DNA of 64,000 bases from Eledone cirrhosa (Eukaryota), in the NCBI GenBank assembly GCA_964016885.1, contig OZ024742.1, positions 9,300,001 through 9,364,000 on the forward strand. Direction: 5' to 3'. Both the position numbers and the translations under genes were made by a program. Under the pieces are notes generated by a model. It ran no database searches. It was given only the letters and a program-made list of their open reading frames with translations, and was not told the DNA's origin. Of this stretch, positions 13,084-54,475 are shown piece after piece (position 1 is the stretch's first letter; each line of letters begins with the position of its first letter).

Positions 13084-13153
<70 letters not shown>

Positions 13154-13365
13154 GTTAAAGTGTACATCTACATATGTATACGGAAGTATTAGTATGCATA
13201 TAAATACACACATGTATACATATGTACATGTACTCAGCTTTTCACTAGACACTTTACAGTGAGTGTCAGCTAGTCTGTATGTAACCACACAGGCGGACCG
13301 GGTTTTAGAGTCATACGAGTTTTCAAGGAAACACATTTCCTCTATTCTCCAGAGGGCCAGACAGG

Positions 13366-13410
13366 AATATTGGACTAGTTTCGATGTTATTACATCTCAT
13401 CAGCAATATT
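13366..13410 (-). ncRNA. Intact minimal type I hammerhead ribozyme (copy 1)
   Basis: AATATTG-CTGATGA-GATGT-AATA-ACATC-GAAA-C-TA-GTC^CAATATT; 7-bp stem I, 5-bp stem II, palindromic ACTAGT stem III; 11-bp distal stem I helix at 13344-13354/13428-13438. Confidence 0.95.
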
Positions 13411-13832
13411 TACCCATCTTCCGGCTTCTCTGGAGAATTGTAAAAGCACATATCGTTATATGCTTTCTCTATGAAAATTAGTAGTGGGTAGACTAATTTG
13501 CATAGAACGTGAGTCATTGTACGCTCCGGTTCAGCGGAAACGATAAAAACAAATAACGAAACGAAATTAAATTTCGTTTCGATTCTAACTCACTTTTGTA
13601 TGACTGACGCTTAAACAATTAAGTTAAAGTGTACATCTACATATGTATACGGAAGTTAGTATGCATATAAATACACACATGTATACATATGTACATGTAC
13701 TCAGCTTTTCACTAGACACTTTACAGTGAGTGTCAGCTAGTCTGTATGTAACCACACAGGCGGACCGGGTTTTAGAGTCATACGAGTTTTCAAGGAAACA
13801 CATTTCCTCTATTCTCCAGAGGGCCAGACAGG

Positions 13833-13877
13833 AATATTGGACTAGTTTCGATGTTATTACATCTCATCAGCAATATT
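13833..13877 (-). ncRNA. Intact minimal type I hammerhead ribozyme (copy 2)
   Basis: Identical to 13366-13410, 467 nt away. Confidence 0.95.
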
Positions 13878-14311
13878 TACCCATCTTCCGGCTTCTCTGG
13901 AGAATTGTAAAAGCACATATCGTTATATGCTTTCTCTATGAAAATTAGTAGTGGGTAGACTAATTTGCATAGAACGTGAGTCATTGTACGCACCGGTTCA
14001 GCGGAAACGATAAAAACAAATAACGAAACGAAATTAAATTTCGTTTCGCTTCTAACTCACTTTTGTATGACTGACGCTTAAACAATTAAGTTAAAGTGTA
14101 CATCTACATATGTATACGGAAGTATTAGTATGCATATAAATACACACATGTATACATATGTACATGTACTCAGCTTTTCACTAGACACTTTACAGTGAGT
14201 GTCAGCTAGTCTGTATGTAACCACACAGGCGGACCGGGTTTTAGAGTCATACGAGTTTTCAAGGAAACACATTTCCTCTATTCTCCAGAGGGCCAGGCAG
14301 GCCCTCTGGAG

Positions 14312-14356
14312 AATATTCCTGATGAGATGTAATAACATCGAAACTAGTCCAATATT
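14312..14356 (+). ncRNA. Inverted HHR copy at the end of the tandem array
   Basis: AATATTC-CTGATGA-GATGTAATAACATC-GAAACTAGTC^CAATATT; first stem I pair is a C-C mismatch. Confidence 0.85.
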
Positions 14357-14419
14357 CCTGTCTGGGAATATTGGACTAGTTTTAATATGGGAATAAAAAT
14401 GGCGGATTCACCTATCCAA

Positions 14420-14471
14420 CACACACACACTCAGAACCACAATTACAAACATTCCCACACTAACACACACA

Positions 14472-14502
<31 letters not shown>

Positions 14503-14845
14503 TCAGAACCACAATTACAAATATTCCCACACTAAAACACACACACACTCACACACTCAGAACCACAATTACAAACATCCCCCCCCCCACACACACAAAC
14601 TCAGAACCACAATTCCAAATATTCCCACACTAAAACACACACACAGACTCACACACACGGAACCACAATTACAAACATTCACACTCTAACACACGCACAC
14701 ACACACTCAGAACCACAATTACAAACATTCACACACTAACACACACTAACACACACACACACACACTCATACACACACACACACACACACACAGACACAC
14801 ACACACTCAGAACCACAATTACAAACATTCACACACTAACAACAC
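14420..14845. repeat. CA-rich minisatellite, ~7 copies
   Basis: ACTCAGAACCACAATTACAAACATTC cores separated by variable (CA)n. Confidence 0.85.
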
Positions 14846-15094
14846 TTAGAGACACACACACACATCTACACAGGAACAAGACAAGCACCAATACAGAAGG
14901 AGAGATAAAGAGAGGGAGACTCAGTGAGAGAGAGGCAGGGAGAGAGAGAGAGCGGCAGAGAAAGAGAGAGAGAGACGGAGGGAGAGAGAGAGAGAAAGAG
15001 CGAGGGAGAGAAAAAGAGATGGAGAGTGAGGGACAGGAAGGGAGAGAGAGTGTGAGGGAGGGAGAGAAAGTGAGAGGGAGAGTGAGGCAGAGAA

Positions 15095-49146: not shown

Positions 49147-52100
49147 TTACAGACACATACTCGGAGTAGGCCCATTCACTCGGGCCATTCTTGCCTCTCT
49201 CACCCATCTTTCAACAAAATGCTGGGAAGAGAGCACTTCCCTTTCTACCCTGATTTTCCTTTTTAAATGAAATTTGAAAAAGTTAATCAGGGCATCACCG
49301 AAGAGGTAAGTGCTCGTTTTCAGCCCTTTCAAACGTGTCCACCATACTATCTCTTTCGCCATGGCCACCAGACAGATAAAAACTGCCTGCCCTTCCCGGC
49401 TAAAGGAAGAGGGTGGGGCAATTCTCACGATGGACTCAGCTGATAGCTGGATCCGTACTACACGCGACAGCAGGTGTTCGACATAAACCCACAAGTCAGC
49501 AATGCTCGGACACTGGACGAGTGCGTGCAGGACGGTTTCGTCGCCCTGCGCGCATCTCGGACATGCCCGGTTGACGGCACCTCCATGCCTGTAGAGTTTA
49601 TCCCGAACTGGCAAAGCTCCTCGGTAGCACTGCCAGGCCAGGGATTTCTGGAAGTTGTCCATAGGCCGCGGCCCTAAAGTTCTTCCGAAGAGATTGGCTA
49701 GTTGATTTTCGTCGACGCCTAGAGTTTCCCCAAGTACGTCGTCGCTCTTCCCCTCCACTAATCCTCTATAGAACGCCAAGTTGGAGTTTCCACCGATCAC
49801 ATTGCCCGATTGGTCGAGGGCTGTGAGCGCCTGAAGACATTCCAGTCTCCAAGCGCTCCCTCTCGGTCTTCGCTTGAATCCAGGACTACAGCTCCGTCAA
49901 GGAGACGAGCTGGGGAAAGACGCGTCAGGCAAACGGAGACCACACCTGATCACCGTCGAGGAAGAGGTGGAGATGTCGTAGCCTGAGCGCATGTCTGCGC
50001 ATCATCAGCCACGGCATTCCCAGCCCTCCACGTAGCGGGTGTTGACAACAGATGGACCGCCTGACCATCGGAGCGCGTCCCTTCCACAAAAAGCGAAAGA
50101 GCAAATGCTCCAGCGCAGTCAGGCGGGGCTTAGGACAAGGTACGACGGTCAGGCGGTAGTAGATGACGGACGCGATATACGCGTTAGCCACCTCCGCTCG
50201 ACCTTTCAGCGATAGCTTCCTCTCGGCCCATTTCTGGGTGAGAGAAGCCACCCTGCTCGTCACCTCGTCCCAGTTTTTGTCCGTCTGGAGATCCAGACTG
50301 AACCAGACCCCGAGCAATTTAACTGGTCCGTCCGTCCAGCGCCAGACGACGCTGTTGGACGGCATGGACCTGCCTCTCCAGGTGCCGAGCTGCAGGCCCA
50401 CTGACTTTTCCTGGTTGATCATTGCTCCTGTCACCGCTTCGTATTCTCTTAGTGTAGTGCCGATCGCTTCGATGTGTTTGGCGTTCGACACCACTACGGT
50501 GACATCGTCCGCATATGTTGACACGGATCTTCCGCATCCTAGTTGCGCGGGACCCCCCTCAACCTCTCCAGTTTGTGCAGTAATGGCTCGAGAGTCAATA
50601 CGTACAAGAGGGACGAGAGGGGACATCCTTGGCGGACCGAGCGCATGATGTTGAACGGTTCCGAAAGGTGACCGTTCACTCTCACCACAGAGCAGATGTC
50701 GCTGTGCATGGCAACGATCCAGCCTCTGAAGACGGGCCCAAAGCCAGCCGCCCTCAGGACTGCCGCTAGATAACGATGGTCGACCCTATCGAAAGCTTTC
50801 GACTGATCTAAATTGATCAAGGACCCACCCGTGCCAGGTTCCCTAGCTACCCTCTCTACGATGTATTGCATGAGGTGGAGGTTGTCGTGGATGGATCTGT
50901 CGGGAATGGCTCATGTCTGCGCCTCTCCCACCAGACCACCAACGACAAGCGCCAACTTCTTTGCTAGCACCTTGGCCAAAATCTTGAACTCTGTGATTAG
51001 CAGAGTTATGGGCCTAAAATTATCTATGTTATCCCCCTTGTTCGGATCCTTTTTTCAGCAGCGCCACAGCTCCTCGGCTCGCAGAGCTGGGAATTCTCCC
51101 GTTCTGTTGCCAGTTGCAGTAGACGTCCGCCAAGAGGCCTCCGAACAAGTCTGGCATCTGTACGTAAAGTTCATAGGGCAGACCATCCAAACCAGGCGAT
51201 TTACCCCTTGTGCAGCTAGTCATTGCCTCCCGTAATTTAGCGGCTGTTATCGGCTTTTCGCAACACTCCGCCTCAGTGGCCGAGAGCCGCGAAAGTCCGT
51301 CGAGGTAGACACTAAAGTCCATCCCTCGATCCGGCCCGCCGCTGCCCCCGAACAACTGAGCGAAATGTCGCTGAAAAGCTTCACACATTTGCCCGGGATC
51401 GAGTAGCATGCGCCCGTCATGGTCCACCAAAGACCGGATCGTGGCTTTGTTGCCACGACACGCCTCCGCCTCTCGGGCCCATTGAACGGCTTTCGTCCCC
51501 TCGTGTATGAGAGCACGCACCCTAGCGTTGACAACGCAGCCTTTGTGCTTTGCATTGGAGAATTGGTTAAGGGCCAATTTCGCCGCAAGTACGTCGGTCG
51601 CGATGCCTTTGCTAAGCGCCTCGTCTAATTTTCTAACTAGTTCTCCCTCTGCTCTATTTTTCTCTATTGCTAAAGCCTTACTAAACCAAATGGACTCTAT
51701 TCTAATCGCTCTTTTCAGAGCAAACCACCACTTGTTGTTCACGATGGCCCCCGTCAACGCCCGCCTAACTAGTTTGCTAATCCGCTCTCTGTAGGGCTTG
51801 CGCGCTGATGAGGACGCGTTTAGCTTCCAGTAGCCGATTCCTCGTCTATGAAGCCTATCTAAGTCAATCACACAGACCACGAATTTGTGGTCCGTGTAGC
51901 TGACTATCTTGAATTGTGGACAGCCTATGCTAGACCTATCTATTTCCTTACAAAATACTCTATCTAGATATGATCTGTATGACCCTATGAGATTTGTCCA
52001 AGTCCACATTTGCACATTCGGGAAATCCAATCGGTACCTGTCAGACAGTTCAAAACGCCTGAGCAGGTTGGTGAGGCTCTTGTACCCTCCTCCCCTATCC

Positions 52101-52549
52101 GCTAATTCCACAGAGTCCCAGCGTGCATCTAAGATCCCGTTCCAGTCGCCGACTAACACTAAATAGCGGGACGTTCCAAGAAAGGTCTCCAGACGCCGGA
52201 AGAAATCAGACCGCCCTACTCCTGTCGGGGCATAGACGGCCACTAGCTTGAAAGCTTGCCCGTCTCCGCTGGTCACGTCCAGCACCACCAACTTACCTTC
52301 TGGGTCCAGGAAGATGGCCCGAATGGCGAGATCCAAACATCTCCGAAAAAGCACAGCAACTCCTCCCCCCGATCCAGGACGTCTGGGAGATGCGTTCACA
52401 TCGTAGTCGCCGAAGATCGGTGCGAAGGCCCGTGCTGCGGAGATTCTGGTCTCGCTGATGGCCACTACATCTATGTTTAGTGACCTGAGGTCGTTGATCA
52501 GGTGGCCCAAGCCACGCGCATTTATGCTGCCTATTCTGAGTGAGGTCAT
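49147..52549 (-). pseudogene. LINE ORF2: APE endonuclease + RT + C-terminal zinc finger (broken into 4 frames)
   Basis: SINARGL, ISET, AVYAP, GDWN, YLDRVF, TDHK; KSPGLDGLPYELY, DQSKAFDRVDH, VRQGCPLS, YADDV, KLLGVW; CPRC..ETVLHALVQC. Confidence 0.93.
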
Positions 52550-52583
52550 GTTGAAATGGAGTGGAAAAGATGGGAAAGACCAC

Positions 52584-54475
52584 TTACCTTACTTCTCGTA
52601 GAGGAAGGATGGTTTCTCCATCCTTTTCACTGCTTGTGGCCTCCTCCGGAAGGATGTCCTTATAAATACTCCTGGAGAGTGCTTGTCGGAAGTCTCCGAT
52701 GTCTTTGGGGAATTTTTGCTTTACTGTCGTGTACGTTTTCTGTGTGATGAGAATGATTTGTATGTGTGGAGGTGGTGTGAACTTTTGGGTTGTTGTGTAA
52801 TCTTTTTCTGTGATGCTGGTGTTGTGTCGGATGTAGTGTATTAATTGGTTGTTGTTCAAATTTAATGCTGTGTAGTGTGTATCGTTTTCGTTGTTTTGTT
52901 TTGATTACGTTTGTTGTGGGTTTGTTTCTGTTTCGCTTATTGGTGACTTTTGTGGTGTTGGTGATGGTGTTGGTGTTTGTGGTGATGAGGTTGGTAATGC
53001 TGGTGTGGATGGTGGCATATATGTCCTAACTTTTTTGTTTGATAGTTTATTTATTTCCCTCTGTATTTTGTTTTTGGAGAGGGAGGGAAGAGAATTTTTT
53101 TCTTTTTTGGTTTCTTTTTTTCTTTTTTCCTGATACCGTTTCTCACTCCTCGTCGTCACAATCTGTCTCCAGTTGTGATAGGCCGGGGAGTGGAAAATCC
53201 TCCACAGGCGTTGGTTTTGGTTGTGGCGTGGTGGATGGTGTAGGCGCTGGTGCTAGTTCTGACGCGTTGGGTGGTGGTGGTGTTTTTTTGCTACTGTTGC
53301 TAGGGTTGTTGCTGTTACAGTTGCTTCTGTTGTTGCTGCTACTGTTGTTGCTGCCATTTCTGCTGCTGGTGGTGTTGATGGTTGAGTCACTGGGGTGGGT
53401 AAAAGAGGTGGCCTCAACCTTTCAGCCTGAGGGCAGAAAGTCCTTAGATGTGTTCCTTCACCACAAACGACACACCTAGGCCTTCTGCCCTCGACGATTA
53501 CGGTGAGGTGGCTGCTGTCAGTGAGGTCTATTACCTCTGGGATCTCCTCAATGCTTTTTTGGTCCGCTTGGATCAGGAGCTCCATCCCAGATCCAGACCA
53601 ATTCTCCTGCTTTTCTTTCGCTATTTCGATTATCTTGGTGTTGGCTTCGATGCCGGCGAGGACGGCAGCTATTAGCCAGGAAATTTTGATGGCCGGTGGA
53701 ACGTGGGTCATCCTGATCTTCACGAGTCTCTGGCCACAATAGCTTGGGACGAGTGTGAAGTCGTCACTTCTTAATGGGGCCATGGAGTGTTCTCTGGCCT
53801 CCTGTGGTGTTTCAAAGAACATGTCCACGGTTCCATATTTCTGCCCACGTCTGATGTGGGCTTTCTTGCCCACACATGTCCCAAAGATTTTGGATTTGGA
53901 ACTCGGATGCCCGTTCCACTCGGCGCGATTTTATGTTAATCGTCCGATAAGACACGGTGCATATTAGCTGGGGGGGGGGGGGTGAAGCTGACCCTGTACC
54001 CATCTTTCTTTACCATTTTTTTGCCTTCTTCTAATTCCTCCTGGGTTACCTGGAATGCTTCGCACTGTTTTGCTACTCTGGCAAAACTCAGGGTGGTTTT
54101 CTTAATTTCATTGTTGCTGTTGTTGTTATCGTTATTTTTGTTATTGTTAATTTTAGTTTCAGTTGTGGTGGTGGTGGCGTCAGTGGTGTTCGGTGTGGAA
54201 GAGTTCATTTTGGTTGAATTCATTTCGATATCACGAGTTAATTTATTTTTTTATTTTGTTTCTGTTGTCGCTGTGGTGGTGGTGGAGGTGGTGGTGGTGG
54301 CGGCTTTAACACCTGCAGTCATTGGTAATGGCGGTAAATGAATGTCTGCCTGAGACAAATTTAAAATATTGCCACTGCTTATATTTTTAGTGTTGGCAAA
54401 CGTAGTAATATTTACAATGGTGGTGTCGGTGTGAGGTGTTAGTTTGTGAGGAAGGTGTGACTTTGTGTCGTCCAT
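52584..54475 (-). pseudogene. LINE ORF1 (gag-like, CCHC knuckle), frameshifted
   Basis: TLSFARVAK; VEGRRPRCVVCGEGTHLRTFCP in 53253-53873; T/P/K-rich low-complexity segments; one break near the G-run at ~53970. Confidence 0.75.

Follow-up and report, generated by a model that had tools for sequence, protein, structure and literature searches.

Penelope-type insertion ends in a young family of hammerhead ribozyme repeats, a likely non-LTR retrozyme, in Eledone cirrhosa

How does a short non-coding repeat that carries its own ribozymes come to be inserted in a genome, and which form of its RNA is copied? The question is raised by a tandem repeat in Eledone cirrhosa (assembly GCA_964016885.1), found in a window of 64,000 nucleotides, the whole stretch of DNA analysed here (contig OZ024742.1, positions 9,300,001 to 9,364,000). 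A sequence-only reading of this window took the repeat for an animal non-LTR retrozyme, inserted recently from a multimeric or circular RNA and probably moved by Penelope-like elements. Retrozymes of this class have been treated by Cervera and de la Pena in 2020 (PMC7229834) and by Li, Clavereau and Pollet in 2026 (bioRxiv, 10.64898/2026.07.22.740005); in the text of the papers cited here it is proposed, not demonstrated, that Penelope-like elements mobilise retrozymes and that RNA circles serve as templates, and only one of nine predicted retrozyme dimers is reported to cut in vitro (10.64898/2026.07.22.740005).

The main arm of the element occupies positions 13148-14301 on the minus strand, where Tandem Repeats Finder gives a period of 467, 2.5 copies and 98% matches, in line with the roughly 2.45 near-identical head-to-tail units first noticed. 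By end mapping the arm holds 2.46 units, its 3' end (13148) lying at monomer position 225, counted from the cut site as 1, and its 5' end at position 8; units 1 and 2 agree at 465 of 467 aligned bases and differ further by one 2-base gap. Both type I hammerhead cores expected on the minus strand, at 13366-13410 and 13833-13877, are intact, and their predicted cuts after GUC fall where they had been placed, at 13373/13372 and 13840/13839. The search with Rfam models that had been proposed as a check matched both cores to Hammerhead_HH9 (RF02275), at 31.8 bits (E 1.2e-5); this falls short of the gathering score, 52, chiefly on account of the minimal stem III. The whole window has no Rfam match at gathering score, and its low-scoring microRNA matches fall on TA-rich hairpins. 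Stem III itself had been described as two base pairs. Since a second pair, C-G, would close a 2-nt loop, the monomer has instead one A-U pair and a palindromic CUAG tetraloop. The first hammerhead sits in an extended helix I, composed of stem I, an internal loop and distal helices (13344-13438, minus strand; fold z -5.2, 0 of 200 shuffles), and the 11-bp distal helix and two hairpins named in the first reading are all present in predicted folds.

Only one cut-to-cut monomer could be released from the window copy, from the minus strand of 13373-13839. It is highly self-paired: its fold reaches -156.5 kcal/mol (z -10.5, with none of 100 shuffles as stable), and 69% of the bases are paired in the circular fold. 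The six frames of the looped family monomer contain no stop-free stretch longer than 84 aa. The length of 467 nt proposed for the monomer holds for this copy and not for the family, in which 103 of 106 cut-to-cut monomers, from 36 insertions, measure 469 nt; 467 is found in the window copy only. Two further features of the minus strand matter for what follows. A 'tail' at 13543-13616, with a second copy at 14010-14083, spans monomer positions 226-299 and includes an 11-bp hairpin (13557-13581), and a long TA-rich hairpin at 13162-13233, which has a counterpart in sister families, lies just upstream, in the RNA, of the outer end. That outer (3') end is joined to a (TA)n microsatellite at 13084-13147, which repeat finding and the ends of sister copies mark as the target.

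The other side of the element is irregular. Past the inner (5') junction the element extends to about 14382 through short scraps of the hammerhead region in alternating orientation (14300-14382): 14300-14315 on the plus strand, 14312-14365 on the plus strand and 14366-14382 on the minus strand, with no full second arm. The middle scrap is a third, inverted hammerhead that the first reading missed (23.2 bits, E 0.0075); stem I of this damaged copy has a C-C mismatch at its base, and folding predicts that the motif is caught in an alternative hairpin. This right side has neither a TA tract nor a target duplication, so that the window copy consists of one arm of 1,154 bases and fold-back scraps. 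A minus-strand read-through transcript would begin with the 54-base antisense copy of the hammerhead, which could block its cleavage. From its sequence the window copy looks like a product rather than a source of the family, because its 2-base deletion is private, being absent from all others among the 106 monomers. Directly right of the inner junction lies a CA-rich array with a 50-base period (14421-14864). A satellite of 28 kb (15094-43012), whose start lies 700 bases away from the element, is built of about 1,200 copies of a purine-rich 23-base unit at 90% match. Farther along, the minus strand of 49147-52588 carries a broken LINE with exo/endonuclease, weak RT and zf-RVT domains in three frames.

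The repeat is no local oddity. Searched against its own 3.0-Gb genome, the monomer has at least 230 matches (38 of 555 candidates were scored), with full units 98-99% identical and spread over many contigs. An exact 31-base core occurs 1,468 times (control 0), and a looser core pattern 39,829 times (control 3). Around the window's family, which we call family A, stand sister families: A2 (466 nt), 87-89% identical to it, and B (422-433 nt) and B2 (466-538 nt), both about 66-70% identical to A over the best aligned stretches. Family A arrays consist of nothing but monomers and can reach 30 or more units, and the family is dispersed, multi-copy and non-coding and shows no LTR-type organisation. 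It must be very young, because divergence within arrays averages 0.27% and is zero in nine of 55 loci. The class proposed for the window repeat is supported by this survey. Two patterns had been named beforehand as speaking against it, copies present only as pLTRs and a single local duplication; the copies are instead dispersed, multimeric and not attached to Penelope ORFs as pLTRs.

Of 198 family-A copies read, 194 retain an intact core, and the canonical metazoan type I elements (CUGANGA, GAAA, NUH) are present. We compared 14 hammerhead variants, hand-picked to span the sister families: 93.5% of cells are paired, against 23-47% in slid controls, and seven of 12 pairs changed on both sides. 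None of 500 shuffles equalled the cells paired, the compensated cells or the covariation score, while two of the five measures did not beat shuffles (49/500 and 173/500). The sequences thus lend support, though not a probability since the variants come mainly from two lineages, to covariation of stems I and II across the sister families. A GGUA/UCC internal loop and an AA(U/C/G)AA loop, sites for a putative loop 1-loop 2 contact, are conserved across the variants and align to HH9. In its core, in helices I of 6-7 bp and II of 4-5 bp and in a short helix III with a small palindromic loop, the hammerhead resembles HH9 and the canonical metazoan type I described in PMC4209133, a text that presents a weak palindromic helix III requiring a dimer as the norm.

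At the level of sequence, family A displays every feature of animal non-LTR retrozymes. Like those described in the two retrozyme papers, it consists of non-coding, low-GC tandem monomers with one type I hammerhead each, the monomer is self-paired, and Penelope-like elements coexist with it; the stem III of one pair with a palindromic tetraloop is also that given for axolotl HHR_Amex1. The monomer is slightly longer than the 150-450 bp stated in PMC7229834 and lies within the 51-972 bp of 10.64898/2026.07.22.740005. Unlike described retrozymes, family A has no relative among the six pLTR regions compared. Both papers argue for mobilisation by Penelope from shared hammerheads, co-occurrence and pLTR kinship, whereas our argument comes from insertion ends. 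The main texts of the two papers contain no insertion footprint: the word 'tail' is absent and 'inverted' appears only in a reference title. In the literature searched, with most subscription papers and supplements outside the search, we found no description of family A, of two-site retrozyme ends or of editing marks in retrozyme copies. The kind of element is already described, and the insertion footprint adds mechanistic evidence of value to specialists.

We mapped 54 insertions: 35 from the best BLAST matches and 19, taken by position from the exact-core list, as a held-out set, for which 15 loci were chosen for cores on both strands and one was then dropped as a duplicate. A locus had to contain a hammerhead or a complete unit to be included; left out were L173, a duplicate of L172, and L055/L056, a single duplicated complex. 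The outer 3' ends fall at only two places in the monomer, positions 224-231 ('short', 43 arms; the window copy is of this type) and 296-299 ('long', 45 arms), 69-74 nt apart, and alternating TA sequence abuts 40 of the 43 short ends and 39 of the 45 long ones (79/88). Wherever an insertion has two head-to-head arms with both ends classed, one end is short and the other long: this holds in 34 of 34 cases (20 discovery, 14 held-out), a result with a chance of about 6e-11 if the arms chose independently. The remaining insertions are one-armed (13) or have a second piece ending elsewhere (seven, including the window copy). Twelve further loci, from a core list on a single strand, each have an end at one of the two fixed sites, and their four two-armed cases all pair short with long, bringing the total to 38 of 38. 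Among the matches listed, sister families end at aligned positions, namely 228-233 and 301-303 in A2, about 217-220 and 269-276 in B, and 251-255 and 301-310 in B2. A two-armed A2 insertion of 220 bases (L108, 5638-5857) also has one short and one long end, yet contains no hammerhead.

The inner 5' ends behave quite differently from the outer ones: the 88 ends are spread evenly along the monomer (KS p 0.15) and do not cluster at the hammerhead cut site, where one of 88 lies within 3 nt against 1.1 expected and ten lie in a 32-nt window against 6.0 (p 0.08). At least one cut site is crossed by 82 of the 88 arms, for 191 crossings in all, counts that are biased upward by the way in which loci were selected. 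Given uniform inner ends and no pile-up over these crossings, cut linear RNAs were not copied to their ends. At the 34 inner junctions, the arms overlap by 1-6 bases in 17 cases, meet bluntly in three and are separated by filler in 14. Classical twin priming on one linear RNA was considered and rejected, as it predicts a long-arm inner end next to position 226 and the inner ends span the whole monomer. The complex left out of the mapping (G000:C4:303493607-303508000) is 14 kb long and holds a two-armed insertion together with its duplicate, formed by folding back tail to tail at the tail hairpin (position 285); the same inner junction is present twice.

Two alternative 3' ends that bound a tail, an inverted 5'-truncated arm and a microsatellite target together make up a Penelope-type footprint. 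In PMC8557442 and PMC3846280, endonuclease-bearing Penelope-like elements are described with partial tandems, an inverted 5'-truncated copy and a tail of 30-40 bp on one end; their tandem and inverted structures are named as unexplained in PMC8557442. Purified Penelope protein, according to PMC11167929, cuts and extends both strands of AT-rich DNA in vitro, and the two internal RNA sites at which it starts mark the limits of the tail; hammerhead cleavage is unnecessary for insertion in that system. Family A therefore shares with elements of the Neptune and Nematis type, as these sources present them, partial tandems, an inverted 5'-truncated arm, a one-end tail, microsatellite targets and two internal priming sites. 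It differs from them in having no ORF, a tail of 69-74 nt rather than 30-40 bp (about 68 in one Penelope-like family of the genome), a canonical rather than a minimal hammerhead, and arms that can both hold many whole units.

Could the genome supply the enzyme? Penelope-like elements are abundant in it, with 10,596 first-look GIY-YIG candidates (150 scored) and ORFs that join RT and GIY-YIG, and a CX4CX2C motif, given in PMC8557442/PMC3846280 as a Neptune and Nematis trait, precedes the endonuclease. In one family 784-aa open frames are numerous, and six fetched copies are 97.5-99% alike. The ends of these elements lie in (TA)n and fall at two sites with 28-68 nt between them, which lie about 76/145, 116-126/155-165, 123/166-178 and 118/146 nt after a hammerhead-like motif, and the two-armed cases seen have one end of each type. 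Head-to-head chimeras of a retrozyme arm and a Penelope-like 3' part were found at three (L184, L166 and L129) of 152 loci; chimeric coordinates are L248 2380-4890 (the same as L184), L166 1643-2371, L129 1009-1835 and L062 1707-2330, and in two of the chimeras both outer ends carry TA tracts. Against the six young intact copies, the Penelope arms show 96% identity in the ORF and 83-86% in the pLTR. The chimeras are ambiguous between co-integration by template switching and deletion between neighbours. As pointers to the helper they are no more than suggestive: two families are involved, and L184 and L166 have the same Penelope end with opposite retrozyme ends. A search for the helper by patterns for other CTAG-loop hammerheads returned mostly mutated retrozymes, seven atypical matches that were fetched contain no Penelope ORF, and none of the six sampled pLTR regions shares more than TA-rich sequence with the monomers. 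In four Penelope-like families (L098, L105, L115, L117 and related pLTRs), the first core strand of the hammerhead-like motif is not CUGANGA in the copies listed and reads UUGA-U/A-AA, with an ACCGGU palindrome; one of the four also alters GAAA. Judged from these sequences, the altered motifs possibly adopt a variant ribozyme fold.

What template was copied is addressed by variants within the arrays. In 31 of 35 loci the two arms share their alleles at every informative site, as against 258 of 1,190 between-locus pairs (0 of 5,000 permutations), and this agreement indicates that both arms come from one RNA or one source. Over 67 loci, private variants fixed in all units of one locus are A>G on the ribozyme strand in 15 of 25 cases and T>C in two, whereas single-unit variants are A>G in 15 of 205 and T>C in 30. 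A first pass on 55 loci had given A>G in 17 of 32 private fixed variants, and the 12 added loci contain no private fixed variant. The signal leans on one locus, L185, where 11 A>G changes beyond the nearest sister stand in both full units, eight of them covered also in a partial third; without this locus A>G accounts for five of 15 private fixed variants (Fisher p 0.006). A-to-I editing of paired RNA is established ADAR chemistry, and the one-strand A>G cluster would fit such editing. Its repetition in register needs a step from monomer to multimer after editing, most simply reverse transcription round a circle. Mosaic private variants, common to adjacent units or to both arms, occur at four loci (L040, L053, L054, L182) and point to multimeric templates, or later DNA-level exchange, as also occurring. 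One monomer position of family A, 25, is a mutation hot spot, polymorphic within seven loci against a mean of 0.49 per position, with changes A>T and A>G; it could be a modified base misread by reverse transcriptase.

On these grounds we regard family A as a young set of dispersed, non-coding hammerhead repeats that is likely a non-LTR retrozyme inserted by a Penelope-like reverse transcriptase and endonuclease, a reading we hold with reasonable though not firm confidence and in which the RNA copied would probably be a circular monomer. Minus-strand multimeric transcripts would be cut by paired hammerheads, the weak stem III being completed through the ACUAGU palindrome, and the cut monomers would be ligated into circles; the paired RNA may sometimes undergo A-to-I editing. 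A pair of Penelope proteins would then cut both strands of a TA tract; on a single RNA, priming of one cDNA would take place at ~225 and of its partner at ~299, both would be extended across the hammerhead junction through varying numbers of rounds, and the two would finally be joined 5' to 5'. In the window copy only the short-site arm would have been completed, the second side ending in fold-back scraps. More tentatively, and with somewhat less than even confidence, we suggest that each two-armed insertion is the fossil of a single reaction, in which an asymmetric Penelope pair carries out rolling reverse transcription from both cut strands on a single, sometimes ADAR-edited circle, one subunit always taking the short site and the other the long.

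The explanation that comes nearest keeps the same element and the same Penelope-type insertion and changes the template: an existing array would be transcribed by read-through into a linear multimer that stays uncut, the hammerhead would be dispensable for mobilisation, and DNA-level duplication would reshape the lengths of arrays. We consider it unlikely. Uncut RNA accounts for arms that cross cut sites just as circles do, the anole Penelope assay reported in PMC11167929 shows normal insertion of hammerhead mutants, and the mosaic variants (60A with period 3 in L040, 4C in five of nine segments in L053, repeated pairs in L054) are of the kind it expects. Edits on a linear multimer should vary from unit to unit, however, and it is the array-wide A>G changes that are in excess (15 against 2 T>C), not the single-unit ones (15 against 30 T>C); nor does it readily produce 11 A>G changes repeated in register, as at L185, or a core and stems kept between families whose best aligned stretches are only about 66-70% alike.

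Two other origins appear very improbable, each to a similar degree. The units might be 5'-truncated pLTRs that belong to an autonomous Penelope-like element and follow its ORF in full-length copies: pLTRs likewise show two-site termini, TA targets and head-to-head inversions, and the genome's Penelope-like elements carry hammerheads in which the stem III loop is again palindromic. No RT plus GIY-YIG ORF between pLTRs was found in the element, and the arrays remain pure monomer repeats through 30 or more units. A Penelope ORF match occurs in the fetched flanks of only eight of 137 loci; five of these were examined and none has the ORF-then-unit arrangement of a pLTR, and the other three matches are weak (23-34% identity). 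Five retrozyme monomers set against the six sampled pLTR regions, a small sample of families, gave no similarity beyond TA-rich sequence in 60 comparisons. A pLTR origin is thus largely refuted. A satellite or DNA-level mobile repeat, spread by unequal crossing-over, by rolling-circle DNA transposition or as a MITE-like inverted unit with the hammerhead as a passenger, would account for the local duplications in long arrays (L054, L055/L056), but fixed 3' and random 5' ends are polar, as in reverse transcription, the tail distinguishes one outer end from the other, which terminal inverted repeats would not show, and the A>G excess affects one strand only.

For the retrozyme reading that we prefer, family A offers some hundreds of near-identical insertions with a strict rule of one short and one long end. 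Its short template is a natural one on which two start sites are mapped, and it bears heritable marks of likely editing that label single RNA molecules; together the end rule and these marks make both the choice between circle and multimer and the model of two-strand priming testable. Should the reading of a single circle copied from two strands be true, it would give direct genomic evidence of animal retrozyme circles as a transposition template, and would define the architecture of the unsolved integration step of Penelope. Related hammerhead cores number about 40,000, and as a source of predicted double-stranded RNA in the genome the superfamily is sizeable too.

A last point concerns transcription. 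The monomer contains an octamer motif on the minus strand (13496-13503 and 13963-13970 in the window), within one of the best-conserved blocks outside the ribozyme, and four of the five monomer types have it 119-131 nt before the cut site. An snRNA-type promoter is a feature of newt satellite 2. We rejected such a promoter for the monomer, the octamer being present in none of 12 upstream regions of host U1 and U2 genes and 120 comparisons returning AT-rich matches only. The host U1 and U2 genes themselves (L258-L261, L273-L276, L279-L282) have common upstream blocks near -57, -91 and -255, which may be snRNA promoter elements of this lineage.
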